From IMG/VR virus record IMGVR_UViG_2537561965_000009: a DNA stretch of 52,523 nt; one strand, written 5' to 3'. Source of the stretch: a virus. Taxonomy: Duplodnaviria > Heunggongvirae > Uroviricota > Caudoviricetes. The position numbers were made by a program, and so were the translations under genes. Shown here in pieces: positions 4,522 through 50,049 of the stretch. Numbering within the stretch: the first letter of the stretch is position 1; each line of letters starts with the position of its first letter. Below the pieces are notes generated by a model. That model saw nothing but the letters and a program-made list of their open reading frames with translations. It was not told the DNA's origin and made no database searches.

Positions 4522-4579
4522 AATTCACTTTAAAAAGGGCGGCAGAGCAGTCACGGAGTAAAACTGATACCGCCAAACG
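4522..4579 (-). ncRNA. dicF: DicF small regulatory RNA
   Basis: Minus-strand sequence UUUCUGGUGACGUUUGGCGGUAUCAGUUUUACUCCGUGACUGCUCUGCCGCCC followed by a U-run matches the DicF sRNA as I recall it; located between ydfC-like and dicB-like genes as in Qin. Confidence 0.6.
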
Positions 4580-4927
4580 TCACCAGAAAATTGATAACAG
4601 AGGGCGTTGCAGCGGAGTTGTCACTTAAGCGTATGGTCAACCTGACAACCCGGTGTCCTCAACGGAGGAAGGAATAACCCCGCCATACTTACCGCCGCGC
4701 CATTTCGCGGAGTGCCACAACCGGAAGCGCACGGTCGAACTAAATTTAACGACACCGTACAGAGAGACCAATTTCGCCGTGCGCTTTCGCTTTATGCCCT
4801 GACTTTTCAGGGACATATCCTTTCAGTAAACTGTCAGTGCCGGATGTTCACCCGTGTCCGGCGCACGCACTCCACCTGACCCGTGGAGAACTCCTTAATT
4901 ACCAACCTTAGCTTCGTTGGTTAGCTA

Positions 4928-12790: not shown

Positions 12791-12935
12791 ATACAGCGAA
12801 CGCCATTGGTTTAGTTGGATATTTACTGTGCCGGACAAAAACGGTTTGCGGGGAAATCTTAGTTAAGTAGAATGACTGCGGGTGCTTGAGGCTATCTGTC
12901 TCAGGCATGAACACCAAAAGGCAGATAGAGAAAAG

Positions 12936-13000
12936 CCCCAGTTAACATTACGCGTCCTGCAAGACGCTTAACATTAATCTGAGGCCATATCTATGCTCTA
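12936..13000 (-). ncRNA. sok: candidate Sok antisense RNA
   Basis: Minus-strand promoter-like TTGCCT (rc of 13031-13036) and TAACCT (rc of 13007-13012) with 17-bp spacer, positioned like the sok promoter of hok/sok loci; extent is an estimate. Confidence 0.35.
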
Positions 13001-13205
13001 CACACGTAGGTTAGCCTCTTACGTGCCGAAAGGCAAGGAGAAGCAGGCTATGAAGCAGCAAAAGGCGATGCTAATCGCCCTGATCGTCATCTGTTTAACC
13101 GTCATAGTGACGGCACTGGTAACGAGGAAAGACCTCTGCGAGGTACGAATCCGAACCGGCCAGACGGAGGTCGCTGTCTTCACAGCTTACGAACCTGAGG
13201 AGTAA
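12993..13205 (+). CDS. mok: mok-like leader reading frame of the hok locus
   Basis: ORF starting upstream of hok and running to the same stop (here in frame with hok); the 5' leader matches the conserved hok mRNA pattern GCTTGAGGC...AGCCTCTTAC...AAGGAGAAG. Confidence 0.4.
   Translation: MLYTRRLASYVPKGKEKQAMKQQKAMLIALIVICLTVIVTALVTRKDLCEVRIRTGQTEVAVFTAYEPEE
13050..13205 (+). CDS. hok: Hok/Gef-family type I toxin
   Basis: 51-aa product MKQQKAMLIALIVICLTVIVTALVTRKDLCEVRIRTGQTEVAVFTAYEPEE has the Hok signature; AGGAG SD at 13036-13040. Confidence 0.85.
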   Translation: MKQQKAMLIALIVICLTVIVTALVTRKDLCEVRIRTGQTEVAVFTAYEPEE

Positions 13206-13645: not shown

Positions 13646-14704
13646 GTGCGGGTATTACTTCGATCTGTTCCGGTACCGGAACTTGGGCTGGTGGTCCTTA
13701 AGCCTGGTCGTGAATCCATGCAGGTATTCCGCAGCGGTCGTGTACTGGTGGAGCCGGAACCGAAAAGCATGCGCGGTCTGCCGTCCGGAGTCGTTCCTGC
13801 CGTTCGCCAGCCATTGGCGGAGGATAAATCACTACTGCCATTTTTCAGCGATGAGCGGGTGATTCGTGCTGCTGGCGGTGCTGGTGCGCTGTCTGACTGG
13901 CTGTTACGCCACGTTAAATCCTGCCAGTGGCCTCATGGTGACTATCATCACAGTGAAATCGTCATACATCGTTACGGTACCGGCGCGATGGTGTTGTGCT
14001 GGCACTGCGACAACCAGCTGCGTGACCAGACCTCCGAATCACTCGGGCAACTTGCTCATCAAAACCTGTCAGCATGGATGATTGACGTCATACGCCATGC
14101 AGTGAATGGCACGCAGGAGCGGGAATTATCGCTGGCTGAATTGTGCTGCTGGGCTTCTGTAAATGATGTAGTGGATGCCATGACCGAAAATATGGCGCGT
14201 CGAATCCTGAAGCTTCCGGGTGAAAAAATCCGCTCAGTATACCGCGAGAGCGACATCGTACCGGGAGAGCAGACCGCCATCAGCATACTGAAGCAGCGCA
14301 CAAAAAATATTGCGCCGTTGCCTCACGCCCACCAGCAACAGAATCCACCACAGGAAAAGACGGTGGTCAGCATTGCCGTTGATCCGGAGTCACCGGCTCA
14401 GTATCTCCAGCGCCAGAAACCACAACGGGAAGAGATGCCTGTATACACGCGCTGGGTAAAAACGCAGAAATGCATGACGTGTGGCAATCAGGCAGATGAT
14501 CCGCATCACATCATTGGTCATGGACTGGGAGGGATGGGAACAAAGGCTGATGATTTGTTTGTTATTCCGCTGTGCCGTAAATGCCATAGCGAACTACACG
14601 CCGGGGTAAAAGATTTTGAAGAAAAACACGGCAGCCAGCTGTTGTTGCTGATTCGTTTTTTAATGCACGCGAGAAATTCGGGTGTCCTGAAGTGGAAAGC
14701 ATGA
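13646..14704 (+). CDS. DUF968-like (YdfU-type) phage protein with C-terminal HNH-like Cys/His motif
   Basis: 352-aa ORF; C-terminal CMTCGNQADDPHHIIGHGLGG...CRKCHSELH resembles an HNH/zinc-finger nuclease motif; directly upstream of rusA. Confidence 0.5.
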   Translation: MRVLLRSVPVPELGLVVLKPGRESMQVFRSGRVLVEPEPKSMRGLPSGVVPAVRQPLAEDKSLLPFFSDERVIRAAGGAGALSDWLLRHVKSCQWPHGDYHHSEIVIHRYGTGAMVLCWHCDNQLRDQTSESLGQLAHQNLSAWMIDVIRHAVNGTQERELSLAELCCWASVNDVVDAMTENMARRILKLPGEKIRSVYRESDIVPGEQTAISILKQRTKNIAPLPHAHQQQNPPQEKTVVSIAVDPESPAQYLQRQKPQREEMPVYTRWVKTQKCMTCGNQADDPHHIIGHGLGGMGTKADDLFVIPLCRKCHSELHAGVKDFEEKHGSQLLLLIRFLMHARNSGVLKWKA

Positions 14705-19166: not shown

Positions 19167-19242
19167 GGCCCTTTAGCTCAGTGGTGAGAGCGAGCGACTC
19201 ATAATCGCCAGGTCGCTGGTTCAAATCCAGCAAGGGCCACCA
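19167..19242 (+). tRNA. ileZ: tRNA with CAU anticodon, ileX-like (tRNA-Ile2)
   Basis: 76-nt cloverleaf GGCCCTT...AAGGGCCACCA with anticodon loop CUCAUAA; closely resembles E. coli ileX as recalled; same position as ileZ in Stx-type phages. Confidence 0.8.
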
Positions 19243-19249
19243 TCACATA

Positions 19250-19326
19250 CCGCCATTAGCTCATCAGGAAAGAGCGCCAGCCTTCGAAGCTGGTTGCGCG
19301 GGGTTCAAGTCCCCGATGGCGGTCCA
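19250..19326 (+). tRNA. argN: tRNA-Arg (anticodon UCG)
   Basis: 77-nt cloverleaf with acceptor CCGCCAT/ATGGCGG, anticodon loop CUUCGAA, T-arm CGGGGTTCAAGTCCCCG and encoded CCA. Confidence 0.75.
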
Positions 19327-19339
19327 TTATCTGCATCAT

Positions 19340-19416
19340 GCGTTGTTAGCTCAGCCGGACAGAGCAATTGCCTTCTAAGCAATCGGTCACTGGTTCGAAT
19401 CCAGTACAACGCGCCA
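19340..19416 (+). tRNA. argO: tRNA-Arg (anticodon UCU)
   Basis: 77-nt cloverleaf GCGTTGT...ACAACGCGCCA with anticodon loop CUUCUAA. Confidence 0.8.
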
Positions 19417-19707
19417 CACTTATTTTCCCTGGCTCGCTTTTGTGGGCCTTTTTTTTAAATGTCTCACAATTTAGGCGGTTGACTGTTGTCTGGTTTGCGG
19501 GGAGTTTGTTAAAAGAAACTGGCATGGTGAATCCCCCTGTGCGGAGGGGCAATCAGCGAGTAGGTATATGGGATAATCGCGGATTCAGGTGCTGGTACTG
19601 AATTCACCGGGAGGCACCCGGCACCATGCAATGGCACATAGCGCCACTCTCCAGCCCCTCTCCGGAGGGGCTGTTTATATTGATTTTGTCAGATGTGAGT
19701 AAACTGC

Positions 19708-20043: not shown

Positions 20044-20303
20044 TTAGTTTCCTTGTTTATGCCTTGCTGGTGATGTTCTGAAAAGTATAAATGATATTTT
20101 TGATTGTAAACCATAGAGCAGAATTATTTTTCTGATGTTGTTTATTGTTTATTTAAATGCAGGGTGGTTTATATCTCGTCTTGTAGTTTATCCATGCATA
20201 TCTGCTTGATGATGAGGTTTTTATTTAAGGTATGGTTTTGTGTTTTTTCTGTATTACATGTCAGGTATTTTAAAGAATCATTTTTCAGATGGTGGAAAGA
20301 ACC

Positions 20304-22157
20304 ATGGCATTTAAACACTATGATGTTGTCAGGGCGGCGTCGCCGTCAGATCTTGCGGAAAAGCTGACACATAAACTGAAAGAGGGCTGGCAGCCGTTTG
20401 GTAGTCCGGTGGCCATAACCCCTTATACCCTGATGCAGGCGATTGCAGCAGAAGGTGATGTGGTCGTCAGTGGTGCAACTGAGCCGGAGTGGTACTACGT
20501 CATCGTACTGGCCGGGCAATCCAATGCCATGGCTTACGGTGAAGGGCTTCCGCTTCCGGATTCTTACGATGCGCCCCACCCACGCATTAAGCAACTGGCC
20601 CGTCGCAACACAGTGACTCCCGGTGGTAAAGCATGCGCATTTAACGACATCATTCCGGCAGACCACTGCCTGCATGATGTTCAGGATATGAGCGCACTGA
20701 ATCATCCGAAGGCAGACCTGAGCAAAGGGCAGTACGGCTGTGTCGGCCAGGGCTTACATATTGCCAAAAAACTGCTTCCGTATATCCCGAATAACGCGGG
20801 GATCCTGCTGGTACCATGCTGTCGTGGTGGTTCGGCATTCACCCAGGGCGCGGAGGGGACATTCAGTGCGGACACGGGGGCCAGCCAGGATTCGGCACGC
20901 TGGGGTGTGGGTAAACCGTTATATCAGGACCTGATCGCACGCACCAAAGCGGCATTACAGAAGAACCCGAAAAATGTGTTGCTGGCGGTGTGCTGGATGC
21001 AGGGCGAATTTGACATGAGCGCTGCCACCTACGCACAGCAACCGGACCTGTTCACGGCCATGCTGAAGCAGTTCCGTACTGACCTTTCCGGATTTAACGC
21101 GCAGTGCCATGGCGGCAGTGCTGCAGTTGTACCGTGGATTTGTGGCGACACGACGTATTACTGGAAAAACACATACGGCACACAGTATGACTCCGTCTAC
21201 GGCGCATACAAAAACAGGGAGAGCGACAACGTTTTCTTTGTGCCGTTCATGACCGACGGTAACGGCAACAACACGCCCACCAACTTACCGGCAGAAGACC
21301 CGGATATTGCTGATGCAGGTTATTACGGCGCGCAATCCCGTAGTAATGGTAATTGGGTATCGTCAAACCGCCCGACACATTTCAGTTCATGGGCGCGCAG
21401 GAGCATTATTCCGGATCGTATGGCAACCGCTATTCTGAACGCAGCCGGGCGCACCTCAGCCTTCATCAGTGGTAAGGCACCGGAAATCAAACCCTCGCCC
21501 GGCGTCGACACGCCATCGGGGCCGTCTGAAGATGCATCCGTACGCACAATCTCCCTGTTGCCGACAGCCGGAGAGGCTGCTGCGCAGGGCTGGACCATTA
21601 AGGACGGCGGAATTCAGTTGTCGGGTGGTGTATTTAAGATCACCAAGCAGAGCAATAAAACTTGGTCCCTGATGCATCCGGTGGATGACGCAGTCTCCCT
21701 GCTGACACGGGGTGGCAGACTGAGCTGTAAGTTTCGACTGTCAGGCGCACTGACCAACAACCAGTTCGGTCTGGGAATTTATCTGTATACCGATGTAGCG
21801 TTACCTGACGTCGTGGCGATGACCGGGACTGGTAACCCGTTCCTGATGTCGTTCTTCACCCAGACCACAGACGGCAAACTGAATCTGATGCATCACAGGA
21901 AAGCAGGAAACACAAAGTTGGGCGAGTTCGGGAATTACAGTAACGACTGGCAGACGCTGGAGCTGGTGTTCACCGCCGGCAGTGCCACGGTTACTCCGAA
22001 ACTGAATGGAGTGGCTGGCCCGGCATTCCAGGTCATAAAAGACAGTCTGACACTGGGGCTGAATGCGCTGACGCTGACGGATATTACCAAAAATGCAGCG
22101 TATGGCGTTGAGATAGAAAGTCTGGTGCTGGAGATAAATGCACCAGCATCATCATAA
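20304..22157 (+). CDS. prophage sialate O-acetylesterase (NanS-p-like; DUF1737 N-terminus plus SGNH/SASA esterase domain)
   Basis: 617 aa from ATG 20304 (alternative ATG 20289); N-terminal MAFKHYDVVRAASPSDLAEKL...; esterase motif VLAGQSNAMAYGEG; C-terminal beta-rich probable carbohydrate-binding region; same position as nanS-p downstream of stx in Stx phages. Confidence 0.75.
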   Translation: MAFKHYDVVRAASPSDLAEKLTHKLKEGWQPFGSPVAITPYTLMQAIAAEGDVVVSGATEPEWYYVIVLAGQSNAMAYGEGLPLPDSYDAPHPRIKQLARRNTVTPGGKACAFNDIIPADHCLHDVQDMSALNHPKADLSKGQYGCVGQGLHIAKKLLPYIPNNAGILLVPCCRGGSAFTQGAEGTFSADTGASQDSARWGVGKPLYQDLIARTKAALQKNPKNVLLAVCWMQGEFDMSAATYAQQPDLFTAMLKQFRTDLSGFNAQCHGGSAAVVPWICGDTTYYWKNTYGTQYDSVYGAYKNRESDNVFFVPFMTDGNGNNTPTNLPAEDPDIADAGYYGAQSRSNGNWVSSNRPTHFSSWARRSIIPDRMATAILNAAGRTSAFISGKAPEIKPSPGVDTPSGPSEDASVRTISLLPTAGEAAAQGWTIKDGGIQLSGGVFKITKQSNKTWSLMHPVDDAVSLLTRGGRLSCKFRLSGALTNNQFGLGIYLYTDVALPDVVAMTGTGNPFLMSFFTQTTDGKLNLMHHRKAGNTKLGEFGNYSNDWQTLELVFTAGSATVTPKLNGVAGPAFQVIKDSLTLGLNALTLTDITKNAAYGVEIESLVLEINAPASS

Positions 22158-22307
22158 AAAGTGAGCCAGTCAAATGGAAGGTATCGTTAAACTCACCGGT
22201 AGTGTCAGTGGGTCGTCTGAGATGCCTGCATGAGTTATCAGAGCCATCAGTACTTAACTGGTGGCTTTTTTTATTGTTGTCAGCTTCCGGATAACGGGAG
22301 ACGGGGT

Positions 22308-22523
22308 ATGTACCAGATGGAAAAAATCACAACAGGTGTGTCATACACCACGTCAGCGGTGGGAACGGGCTACTGGTTCCTGCAGTTGCTGGACAGGGTT
22401 TCCCCGTCTCAGTGGGCGGCAATAGGCGTGCTGGGGAGTCTGCTGTTTGGGCTGCTGACATATCTGACTAACCTGTATTTCAAAATCAGAGAGGACCGTC
22501 GTAAGGCTGCACGGGGAGAGTAA
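22308..22523 (+). CDS. S: class II holin (phage 21 S-type pinholin) with dual-start motif
   Basis: 71-aa product [28 protein letters not shown]...[15 protein letters not shown] closely resembles the S21 pinholin as recalled; two in-frame starts at 22308 and 22317. Confidence 0.8.
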
Positions 22524-22527
22524 TTCA

Positions 22528-22872
22528 ATGACTCAAAACTATGAACTGATTGTGAAAGGGATCCGCAATTTTGAGAATAAAGTTACGGTAACTTTAGCGT
22601 TACGGGACAAAAAACGCTTTGACGGTGAAATTTTTGACCTGGACATCTCGCTGGACCGTGTTGAAGGTGCCGCGCTGGAGTTTTATGAGGCAGCAGCCAG
22701 AAGGAGCATCAGACAGGTCTTCCTGGATGTTGCTGCCGGGTTATGTGAAGGGGATGAGCTGTCGCCGGAAAAGCGCCCCATAATTTTAGAGGCGCAGAAT
22801 GTGTGGATAACCTACAAAGGAAAGCTACCGGGAAGAATTACTGGTTCTCTGAAGACTCCGCCGAAATGGTAA
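22528..22872 (+). CDS. hypothetical protein inserted between holin and endolysin
   Basis: 114-aa ORF with ATG start and GGAGAG SD; its 3' end overlaps a convergent ORF. Confidence 0.45.
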   Translation: MTQNYELIVKGIRNFENKVTVTLALRDKKRFDGEIFDLDISLDRVEGAALEFYEAAARRSIRQVFLDVAAGLCEGDELSPEKRPIILEAQNVWITYKGKLPGRITGSLKTPPKW

Positions 22873-23110
22873 TTTCACCAGCATATTTTTCTTCCAGTAA
22901 TACCGCCAGCCACTTGAAAGAATTTTGTTGTTGCTGGGACCATTTGGGGTTGAGTGATTCAAGCTGGAGCGATGCCAGTGTTGGTTGCATTTGTTCCTTG
23001 GGAATTGAGAATGCCAGATATGAAAATGCGACAGTAAGGGCATTTACATCATCCCGAAGCCTGGAAATGCAGTCGAGCAACTCCTGTAGAGAAATGGTGC
23101 TATTGTCCAT
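22838..23110 (-). CDS. hypothetical protein, convergent and overlapping with 22528-22872
   Basis: 90 aa from ATG 23110 with GAGAGG SD; protein-like composition (MDNSTISLQELLDCISRLRDDVNALTVAF...). Confidence 0.4.
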   Translation of the reverse strand: MDNSTISLQELLDCISRLRDDVNALTVAFSYLAFSIPKEQMQPTLASLQLESLNPKWSQQQQNSFKWLAVLLEEKYAGEITISAESSENQ

Positions 23111-23215
23111 AAACAATCCTCTCTATTGTATTTAACTATTCCTTGCCTGATTCAACAGGCCGGGACAGATAAACATATCCAGGGTTCAGAAACCGATAAA
23201 TCCTGATAAATATCC

Positions 23216-23749
23216 ATGAACGCAAAAATCAGATACGGCCTGTCGGCTGCCGTTCTGGCACTGATTGCCGTCGGTGCGCCTGCGCCTGATATTCTCGACC
23301 AGTTTCTGGATGAAAAAGAAGGTAACCACACAACGGCATACCGCGATGGTTCCGGCATCTGGACCATCTGTCGGGGTGCCACGGTGGTGGATGGAAAACC
23401 CGTTTTTCCCGGTATGAAACTGTCGAAGGAAAAATGCGACCAGGTTAACGCCATTGAACGGGATAAGGCGCTGGCATGGGTGGAGCGCAATATTAAAGTG
23501 CCACTGACCGAACCACAGAAAGCGGGTATCGCGTCATTTTGTCCCTATAACATTGGCCCCGGTAAGTGTTTCCCGTCGACGTTTTATAAGCGGCTGAATG
23601 CCGGTGATCGTAAAGGTGCATGCGAGGCGATTCGCTGGTGGATAAAAGATGGTGGGCGCGATTGCCGCATACGTTCAAATAACTGCTATGGACAGGTTAT
23701 TCGTCGTGACCAGGAAAGCGCATTAGCCTGTTGGGGGATAGATCAGTGA
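23216..23749 (+). CDS. R: SAR endolysin (lysozyme, phage 21 R-type)
   Basis: 177-aa ORF; N-terminal signal-anchor-release segment [17 protein letters not shown]; catalytic E-x8-D-x5-T pattern [16 protein letters not shown]; C-terminal region resembles R21. Confidence 0.8.
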
Positions 23750-24204
23750 GCAGAGTCGCCGCGATTATTTATGCTCTGGTTATCTGCATCATCGTCTGCC
23801 TGTCATGGGCTGTTAATCATTACCGTGATAACGCAATCGCCTACAAAGAGCAGCGCGATAACAAGGCCAGTGAACTGGAGAAGGCGAACGCCACCATCGC
23901 TGACATGCGGAAGCGTCAACGTGATGTAGCAGAACTCGACGCAAGATACACAAAGGAGCTTGCTGATGCTAACGCGACTATCGAAAGTCTCCGTGTTGAT
24001 GTTTCTGCTGGGCGTAAGCGCCTGCAAGTCGCCGCCACCTGTGCAAAGTCAACGACCGGAGCCAGCGGCATGGGCGATGGAGAAAGCCCAAGACTTACAG
24101 CAGATGCTGAACTCAATTATTACCGTCTCCGAAGTGGAATCGACAAGATAACCGCGCAGGTTAACTACCTGCAGGAATACATCAGGACGCAATGCCTGAA
24201 ATAA
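23746..24204 (+). CDS. Rz: i-spanin Rz
   Basis: GTG start overlapping the R stop; product [38 protein letters not shown]... is close to lambda Rz. Confidence 0.85.
23966..24151 (+). CDS. Rz1: o-spanin Rz1 (lipoprotein) embedded in the +1 frame of Rz
   Basis: 61-aa ORF with AAAGGAG SD; lipobox LLGVSAC and proline-rich mature part. Confidence 0.75.
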
Positions 24205-24408: not shown

Positions 24409-24930
24409 ATGAATATCGTGCCACTTAATTACAAAGGTGAAATTGTCAGTTTCAACACTGATGGTTGGATCAACGTCACAGGTGTTGCTGAGAGATTTGG
24501 GAAACGCATTGATAACTGGATGCGTTTGGCAGAAACGCTTGAATACGTTCGTGCTTTAGACGAAGCGTTGACCGGGAAAGAATCTCAAATTTTACATCCC
24601 TCACAATCGAGGTATGTAAAAACCAGCAAGGCACGAAAGGACAGGGGTGGTGGTACGTGGCTACATCCAAAACTTTCAGTTGCATTTGCCCGTTGGTGTG
24701 ATGCTCGTTTTGCTGTGTGGTGCGACCTGCACATTGATAGTCTGCTTCGCGGTGAACTGACTGAGCAGCAGAAATATGAGCAAGCATGTCGCATTCGCGA
24801 TGACCGGAAATCAAAAGCCAGCAATGGGGCAAGAGAGATGGCTCGCTGGCGATGGGATAAGCCGGTTATTGAAGCAAATGTTGAGTACTGGCGCGAGCAA
24901 CTGCAGTTGACTCTCGATATCGCGTGCTGA
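24409..24930 (+). CDS. KilA-N domain protein
   Basis: 173-aa ORF; N-terminal region ...GWINVTGVAERFGKRIDNWMRL...GGGTWLHPKLSVAFARWCDARFAVW matches the KilA-N DNA-binding domain pattern. Confidence 0.7.
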   Translation: MNIVPLNYKGEIVSFNTDGWINVTGVAERFGKRIDNWMRLAETLEYVRALDEALTGKESQILHPSQSRYVKTSKARKDRGGGTWLHPKLSVAFARWCDARFAVWCDLHIDSLLRGELTEQQKYEQACRIRDDRKSKASNGAREMARWRWDKPVIEANVEYWREQLQLTLDIAC

Positions 24931-49468: not shown

Positions 49469-50049
49469 TGGCATTCAGAATGAGTGAACAACCACGGACC
49501 ATAAAAATTTATAATCTGCTGTCCGGAACTAATGAATTTATTGGTGAAGGTGATGCATATATTCCGCCTCATACAGGTCTGCCAGCAAACAGTACCGACA
49601 TTGCACCGCCAGATATTCCAGCTGGCTTCGTGGCTGTTTTCAACAGTGATGAGTCATCGTGGCATCTCGTTGAAGATCATCGGGGTAAAACGGTTTATGA
49701 CGTGGCTTCCGGCGACGCGTTATTTATTTCTGAACTCGGCTCATTACCGGAAAATGTCACCTGGTTATCCCCGGAAGGGGAGTTTCAGAAGTGGAACGGC
49801 ACAGCCTGGGTGAAAGATGCAGAAGCAGAAAAACTATTCCGGATCCGGGAGGCGGAAGAAACAAAAAACAGCCTGATGCAGGCAGCGAATGAGCATATTG
49901 CGCCACTTCAGGATGCTGTAGATCTGGAGATCGCAACGGAGGAAGAAACTTCGTTGCTGGAAGTCTGGAAAAAGTATCGGGTGTTGCTGAACCGTGTTAA
50001 TACAACAACTGCTCCGGATATTGAATGGCCAGTAGCACCTATAGGGTAA
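49468..50049 (+). CDS. tfa: tail fibre assembly protein Tfa
   Basis: 193-aa ORF, ATG overlapping the stf stop. Confidence 0.85.

Follow-up and report, generated by a model that had tools for sequence, protein, structure and literature searches.

The subject of this analysis is a pair of convergent genes in the lysis cassette of a lambdoid prophage, carried on a stretch of 52,523 nucleotides (IMG/VR virus record IMGVR_UViG_2537561965_000009, the whole of which is referred to here as the window). Between a holin gene (S) and a lysozyme gene (R) lie ydfR, on the plus strand, and an open reading frame (ORF) of 90 codons on the minus strand, here called X, which meets ydfR tail to tail. It is probable, by a modest balance of the evidence, that ydfR and X form one convergent moron module, in which a late-strand partner faces an antisense cargo and the two are expressed in the manner set out below. 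Both genes are already annotated and common. What is new is that the pair, as judged from sequence comparison, appears as a unit of a recurrent and uncharacterised class of modules, and that this class carries a conserved, structured leader that is absent from Rfam and from the searchable literature. Approximately one in five sequenced Escherichia coli carry X in a prophage lysis cassette, and the module view turns two 'hypothetical proteins' into a testable system with an antisense cargo, a conserved -10 element, a covarying leader and partners that include YdfR. If correct, it would mean that lambdoid phages have a regulated accessory module of a new kind, and there might be a link to the binding of RNase E that has been reported for YdfR.

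A resident ydfR gene and an optional antisense cassette

A preliminary description of this DNA had placed two convergent ORFs between the holin and endolysin genes, and had taken both to be inserted there. The sizes and coordinates of the two ORFs (Table 1) are as it gave them, the tail-to-tail overlap of about 35 bp is exactly 35 bp, and the good Shine-Dalgarno (SD) sequence ascribed to the minus-strand ORF is GAGG, 7 nt before the ATG (23121-23118). The insertion itself stands for X, which lies within a variable insert of approximately 294 bp, and falls for ydfR, which is the usual resident of this cassette type. Indeed, a holin-ydfR-lysozyme cassette has matches in 5123 of 5426 complete E. 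coli genomes. The Qin prophage of K-12 has the same order (essQ-ydfR-rrrQ, followed by rzpQ), with ydfR between an S21-type holin and a lysozyme. Unlike the window, however, Qin has neither X nor the antisense promoter region, and its ydfR encodes 103 aa with an unrelated C-terminus and a stop codon that overlaps the rrrQ start.

The X cassette is present in some lysis cassettes and missing from others. In locus L002 (strain w264) the cassette is otherwise 97% identical to that of the window, with some 20 bp at the X site and a YdfR of 116 aa. X cassettes were found in 1221 of the 5426 complete E. coli genomes, the BL21-derived NiCo21(DE3) among them with a copy of 99.7% identity, and in three phage records; the gene order is the same in all 80 best IMG/VR loci. 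In the usage established with phages HK97 and HK022 a moron is an extra gene absent from closely related operons, and the X cassette is exactly that. The suggestion that the minus-strand gene might act as a moron is thereby upheld, on the grounds of its presence/absence pattern, its conserved -10 element, its orientation against the late genes and the annotation of a member of the class as a moron in HK022. For the further suggestion of that description, interference with lysis timing, the analysis yielded no support. Within the overlap with ydfR, 35 unique related sequences contain five variants of the X tail and two of the YdfR tail.

Comparative sequence data indicate that X is a real, conserved gene. 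It matches phrog_2411, a PHROG of unknown function, at E 1.7e-59 over profile positions 1-90 of 90, and distant members of the family (P0067-P0077) match the same profile at E 1e-19 to 6e-9. At a locus 97.8% identical to this one, RefSeq has annotated the same pair of coding sequences (WP_000193293, YdfR family protein; WP_000370546, hypothetical protein). The mechanical ORF list opens X at TTG 23116 (92 aa) instead of ATG 23110; the SD sequence and the start codon are conserved. Both ydfR and X are intact in all 81 related viral loci analysed, and so the possibility raised in the preliminary description, that one of the two ORFs is not conserved, does not apply. The pairwise ratio of non-synonymous to synonymous substitution rates (dN/dS) of X is 0.17-0.34, with differences mostly at third positions. 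Approximately 64 close relatives occur in Escherichia and Shigella, there are about 20 representatives at 50% clustering of 1.8 billion proteins, and homologues reach ~30% identity in other genera.

An explanation of X as a spurious shadow, whether of plus-strand coding or of non-coding sequence, is refuted by the dN/dS and frame comparison across six homologous loci and is left with a negligible probability. It could draw on a plus-strand mirror frame that is open in the window and has an equally low dN/dS, a value that arises because its third codon positions are common with X. Stop codons break the mirror frame in L004, L005 and L007, whereas none breaks the minus frame in any of the six loci or of the 81 viral loci. 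The confident helical model and the breadth of the homologues also argue against a shadow.

The AlphaFold model of X is a three-helix bundle (helices 8-34, 38-52 and 59-76) with a predicted local distance difference test (pLDDT) score of 83.6. Residues 81-90 are predicted to be disordered; these are the most variable part of X and the portion that overlaps ydfR. The protein is acidic, with no signal or membrane segment. Homology and structure searches of both proteins identify YdfR as DUF1327 and X as phrog_2411, which has no Pfam or structural match: Foldseek returned no usable match for the X fold in the PDB (best E 3.8) or BFVD (best E 0.38), and a PDB sequence search gave nothing for X and only a chance match for YdfR (E 6.7). 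NCBIfam and PADLOC hold no family for X or YdfR (PADLOC-DB 2.0: none at E up to 1). Two known kinds of system were considered and rejected. A type II toxin-antitoxin pair does not fit, as ydfR and X are convergent and give no such Pfam, NCBIfam or PADLOC match, and neither protein matches any model of a known anti-phage defence system in PADLOC-DB 2.0.

Partner tails and a class of leader-bearing antisense cargos

X occurs in several settings other than the lysis cassette of the window. Diverged copies (58-60% identity) are intact on an IncF plasmid between insertion sequence (IS) remnants (L004, 2471-2740) and beside iha in an island of the uropathogenic E. coli strain F11 (L005, 2446-2718); in the latter, traces of ydfR and R remain and the YdfR tail carries a stop. 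These prophage scraps adjoin virulence genes (iha, an autotransporter), and the neighbouring ydfR and lysozyme genes are gone or broken. The survival of an intact X in decayed prophage scraps suggests selection on X by the host. More distant homologues (28-47% identity), the contexts of which were looked up locus by locus, lie between tail genes M and L (L011, L105), adjoin tail gene I (L099 from Yersinia massiliensis, and L106), precede Nu1/terminase (L009) or a different holin-endolysin-Rz set (L101, Citrobacter), or occupy two chromosomal sites (L008, L015). The copy in L015 (5001-5279, homologue P0077) lies between dinI and bssS, on the dinI strand, in a core-like region with no phage genes nearby. 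In every prophage case, amounting to seven contexts besides the window, X is antisense to the late genes. In a scan of species-representative genomes X turned up in no more than three additional species (Yersinia massiliensis, Escherichia ruysiae and Citrobacter meridianamericanus), so the X family itself is narrow.

The 3' end of distant X genes abuts or overlaps a late-strand ORF, by 7-47 bp where the frame is intact. In full-length BLASTP comparisons the small partner ORFs beside X showed no similarity to YdfR, and the two have only a C-terminal motif in common (G.L...KITGSL..P). This motif is present in the window, in L101, L099, L011, L009, L106 and L105, and in the E. coli variant L007. 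The corresponding C-termini are KGKLPGRITGSLKTPPKW in the window YdfR, EGKIRNEKITGSLRVPMKL in L101, GELYSEKITGSLFAPL... in L099, KGNIFSDQIFGDLKKPPSY in L011, GGQLRYKRLTGDILIPLES in L009, GMVYIEKISGDLIKIPI in L106 and EGKLILRDGSLVSF in L105. The motif residues are coded variously, with CTG, TTA, TTG or CTT for leucine and GGT, GGA or GGC for glycine, and this synonymous variation suggests that selection acts on the peptide. In Yersinia L099 the X stop falls at the same point of the ITG codons as in the window. The ITGSL tail was also considered as a class-wide feature and rejected, since not one of the 80 unique cargos that belong to families other than X had such a tail beside it; the tail is thus specific to X.

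These observations bear on a simpler explanation, in which X is an ordinary stand-alone moron that serves lysogenic conversion or phage exclusion and has no tie to ydfR, the 3' overlap being an accident of tight packing in a dispensable X tail. This explanation is possible, and we hold it only tentatively. It would account for a disordered and most variable X terminus, for the ydfR forms that exist without X, and for the copies of X that are intact without a functional partner. It would not account for the seven independent prophage contexts that keep the partner motif beside X through synonymous codon changes, a pattern that points to selection at the protein level, or for the way in which, class-wide, cargo and partner C-terminus vary together between conserved flanks.

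The YdfR of the window matches PF07041 at 142.8 bits, against a cut-off of 25, over residues 1-112, and RefSeq names its 98% identical homologue 'YdfR family protein'. An N-terminal beta-beta-beta-alpha domain (approximately residues 4-73) is followed by the C-terminal tail. In the AlphaFold2 model the pLDDT is 60-83 at residues 4-68 and below 50 at residues 69-114. Within this YdfR subtype no part is better conserved than the tail, and the K-12 protein differs at its C-terminus, which is without the KITGSL..P motif. The YdfR homologues P0101, P0086 and P0163 (176-183 aa; L108, 588-1223) read ...ITGSLKTPP and then continue in frame into a coiled coil (IEKLEGRVADLNKKL...). This extension resembles the N-terminus of partners in the module class described below (MTLEQRVEALEK), and a different antisense cargo lies next to it. 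Because the frame runs on after GSLKTPP into a partner-like coiled coil, the junction looks like a recombination seam, as far as the sequences allow it to be judged. A study of 2026 found, in two-hybrid and pull-down experiments, that YdfR of K-12 binds RNase E in its catalytic N-terminal half; residues 1-72 of YdfR are sufficient for binding, and RNA co-purifies (PMC13232886). The N-terminal domain of the window YdfR is homologous to that of the K-12 protein. Literature searches on YdfR/DUF1327, on the leader loop sequence and on HK022 srb yielded nothing beyond this RNase E study.

A conserved stretch precedes the distant X genes. It opens with a TAnnnT box and, after a gap of six bases, TCAGCC(C); two hairpins follow, the first variable in sequence and the second with a loop, GAUGGCUGAUUA, that does not vary, and then come an SD sequence and the start codon. 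CsrA would be a speculative candidate for a binder of the leader, given the GGA in the loop and the SD sequence. This canonical leader is approximately 80 nt long and promoter-proximal, and ends 16-26 nt before the start codon of the cargo. A scan of IMG/VR with the pattern TCAGCC-N15-45-GGATGGCTGATTA matched at least 120 contigs (loci L109-L228); 108 modules were extracted from among the matches listed, and the class statistics that follow refer to these. By sequence the cargos, 74 different small proteins, fall into 18 clusters; almost all are PHROGs of unknown function, and one cluster matches DUF1883. The cargo runs counter to its flanking ORFs (those of 200 aa or more) in 98 of the 108 modules, and in six a neighbour lies on the cargo strand. 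The slots occupied are between M and L (at least 42), at I/K (12), in the lysis cassette (about 8) and at Nu1 (1).

Covariation marks the leader as a structured RNA. In an alignment of 45 diverse leaders 91.9% of cells are paired, versus 28-50% in slid controls; compensatory changes occur at six of the eight pairs of hairpin 1 and three of the six pairs of hairpin 2, and none of 500 shuffles reached the observed covariation. The frequency of G-U pairs places the structure on the cargo strand. A pseudoknot between UCAGCC and GGCUGA is possible, although both arms are fixed by the search pattern. In the -10 region of 74 modules, T-12 is conserved in 67, A-11 in 73 and T-7 in 67, and CCCTGGT precedes it. 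A search of Rfam with eight loci at E up to 1 gave no family for the leader, a scan of the window at the Rfam gathering threshold gave unrelated families only, and the loop sequence was not found in the searchable literature. Among E. coli genomes the leader is present in 222, always without annotation.

In 55 of the 74 modules the cargo is faced by a convergent ORF of 45 aa or more, with overlaps mostly of 4-54 nt. Some of these partner ORFs may be spurious; 24 of the 55 begin with a sequence like MTLEQRVEALEK, and several match PHROGs of unknown function. Six partners are YdfR/DUF1327 by profile (E 4e-33 to 2.5e-10). In L132 the order is S21 holin, a 72-aa ydfR core, an antisense cargo with the canonical leader, and SAR (signal-anchor-release) lysozyme, and the same slot between ydfR and R carries other antisense genes with the same promoter and leader in Stx2 (Shiga toxin 2) phage 86 (orf6), PhiR5_1 and L132.

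The canonical leader is found in HK022, HK633, mEp213, mEp043, ES18 and SPN3UB (for example at 13980-14069 of HK022, NC_002166, and at 4925-5004 of L011). HK022 provides one of the closest known likenesses. Its gp22 and gp23 ('srb protein') are both annotated 'moron gene product' in NC_002166, and srb, like X, is antisense to the late operon and convergent with a small late-strand gene (gp22), with a 3' overlap of 81 bp. Unlike the window X, srb occupies a tail slot, inserted between the essential late tail genes I and J, and has a full two-hairpin leader directly upstream. The Srb-like cargos have a helix pattern in common with X, and an hhalign comparison of X with the Srb-like cluster gave a probability of 20.5% and E 0.0011 over 58 columns, which is only suggestive of homology.

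Expression of the pair and competing explanations

In the module that we favour, the partner ydfR would be made from the Q-dependent late transcript, because it is co-directional with S and R. The cargo, X, would be a small cytoplasmic three-helix protein with a weak sigma-70 promoter of its own, placed shortly before the R start codon and pointing against late transcription. It would be made when late transcription is off, that is, in lysogeny or early infection, from a transcript with a predicted 5' end near 23165. Antiterminated late transcription would then silence X by promoter occlusion and antisense pairing, so that expression of partner and cargo would alternate. Most likely, the X product would be an antagonist or an immunity-like factor, directed either at its cognate YdfR-type tail or at the target of that tail.

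The candidate promoter of X has a -10 box, TATGTT, that is identical in 82 of 83 E. coli-type loci and occupies the place that the TAnnnT box has in the 74 canonical modules, 6 nt ahead of TCAGCC. By alignment, the window leader keeps the block around the R start, CCCTGGATATGTT (which holds TATGTT), the TCTGTCCC start and hairpin 1, and lacks hairpin 2. Its predicted fold (-14.7 kcal/mol, z -1.48) is not significant alone. The window thus retains the layout of the class, an antisense cargo convergent with a late-strand partner, and is without its canonical leader; we file it as a putative decayed, leader-degenerate relative of the class.

Several observations weigh against the module and its proposed expression. 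A consensus sigma-70 scan found no strong promoter for X; the TATGTT site scored below threshold and its -35 element is poor. On the minus strand downstream of X no intrinsic terminator was found other than a weak 5-bp stem (22349-22335) within the holin gene, and X is thus without the factor-independent terminator of its own that belongs to the moron definition. Covariance model R1 gave nothing significant at the X leader of the window, where its best match (E 1.9) lies elsewhere, and no match in the E. coli-type X loci L001 and L007. With the canonical leader lacking, regulation of the window X may differ from that of the class. An ITGSL-type tail also closes the 116-aa YdfR form (w264, ...GSLKTPPESQP), and is carried by the 176- and 183-aa forms, in each case without X. 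X is intact without a functional partner in L004, L005, L008 and L015, which suggests that X does not need the partner in cis. Some class 'partners', such as HK022 gp22, look unconvincing as proteins, and a physical interaction between X and YdfR is purely something that we infer.

A wider reading, which we regard as possible but doubtful, would make the pair a decayed member of an undescribed and widespread polymorphic system of convergent modules in enterobacterial lambdoid phages, in which a late partner with a variable C-terminus faces its cognate antisense cargo behind a conserved promoter and structured leader. With a variable centre set between conserved flanks, the modules suggest that cassettes are shuffled and that their function lies in an arms race. 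They might serve to exclude kin or superinfecting phages, or to give immunity to an effector of the late phase, and the leader would be a new regulatory RNA.

Small genes that run against late transcription beside the lysis genes have a precedent in bor/iss of phage lambda, which are expressed from the prophage, and in L002 iss is antisense right after Rz. Bor/Iss is an outer-membrane lipoprotein with a signal peptide, encoded downstream of Rz; X, in contrast, lies between ydfR and R, overlaps its neighbour and has no signal or membrane segment.

A further explanation dispenses with the X protein and makes the functional product an antisense RNA, which would start at the X promoter, extend into ydfR and perhaps into S, and pair with the late messenger RNA. 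Such an RNA could damp leaky expression of the lysis genes or exclude related superinfecting phages. A transcript from the X promoter should read on into ydfR and S in antisense, since no terminator could be detected behind X, and antisense loci in the late regions of Salmonella prophages (STnc6030 of BTP1, STMMW_20121 of ST64B) are transcribed on their own in lysogens from promoters antisense to lytic genes, the STnc6030 RNA excluding superinfecting self phage (PMC7067206). STnc6030, unlike X, is non-coding, with no ORF of more than 60 aa. The purifying selection on X, the conservation of its start codon and SD sequence, and a frame that stays open at 58-60% protein identity in unrelated flanks would not be explained by a role of the RNA alone. 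An antisense RNA as the functional product is thus unlikely, but RNA and protein roles could coexist.

Neighbouring genes of the lysis cassette

The pair belongs to the late operon of an E. coli prophage of mosaic lambdoid type, with terminase and portal genes downstream of the lysis region. The cassette is of the phage 21 pinholin/SAR-endolysin type, as seen from its PF04971, PF00959 and PF03245 matches, the SAR character of the lysozyme being judged from sequence only. The distance from the holin stop (22523) to the lysozyme ATG (23216) is 692 bp.

Table 1. Coordinates of the ydfR/X pair and of the surrounding lysis-cassette features in the window.
Feature	Coordinates	Strand	Basis
S21-type class II holin (pinholin type), 71 aa, dual start Met1/Met4 (MYQM)	22308..22523	+	PF04971, 111 bits
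ydfR (DUF1327), 114 aa, ATG 22528, TAA 22870-22872	22528..22872	+	PF07041
Plus-strand mirror ORF, 110 aa, shadow of X, not a gene	22803..23135	+	stops in L004, L005, L007
X, 90 aa, ATG 23110, TAA 22840-22838	22838..23110	-	phrog_2411, without Pfam match
ydfR/X tail-to-tail overlap, 35 bp; X tail opposite the last 10 codons and stop of ydfR (TGSLKTPPKW*)	22838..22872		
Presence/absence cassette carrying X, ~294 bp; ~20 bp in cassette-less relatives	22866..23159		alignment with L002 (w264) and K-12 Qin
Putative X 5' leader with hairpin GCCUG-UUGAAU-CAGGC (23160-23145) and SD GAGG	23111..23165	-	alignment with canonical leaders
Putative X promoter: -10 TATGTT 23177-23172, weak -35-like TTTATC 23200-23195, 17-bp spacer	23172..23200	-	sequence scan
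Lysozyme R (RrrQ-like), 177 aa, hydrophobic SAR-like N-terminus	23216..23749	+	PF00959, 87 bits; phrog_7 endolysin
Rz i-spanin, GTG start at 23746 overlapping the lysozyme stop	23746..24204	+	PF03245, 137.9 bits
Embedded out-of-frame Rz1-like lipoprotein ORF in Rz	23960..24151	+	lipobox LLGVSAC, proline-rich stretch
KilA-N gene directly after the spanins	24409..24930	+	PF04383

The holin also matches the holin families phrog_9876 and phrog_20, and its equivalent in L001 is named 'class II holin family protein' in RefSeq. The lysozyme at the equivalent locus is named 'lysozyme' there, and the N-terminus is hydrophobic and rich in alanine and glycine. The ORF embedded in Rz has features typical of an Rz1 o-spanin, as predicted from its lipobox and proline-rich stretch. 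The position of the KilA-N gene is taken by trkG (in Rac) or by antisense iss/bor in relatives, and is thus another variable slot.

A strong 12-bp hairpin followed by a T-run (22240-22268, +) lies approximately 40 nt before the holin start, and is likely to be an intrinsic terminator that Q-modified late transcription must read through. Immediately 5' of the lysis cassette, as in Stx phages, is a gene for a 622-aa nanS-p-like sialate O-acetylesterase (20289-22157, +; DUF1737, SASA esterase, DUF6645). The Rfam matches above the gathering score include three tRNAs followed by STnc100, at 19167-19413 (+) and 19493-19682 (+); tRNAs and STnc100 mark the usual region downstream of Q in Stx-like phages. 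The others are DicF at 4537-4588 (-), sok (hok/sok) at 12880-13055 (+) and IS009 at 49811-50009 (+).

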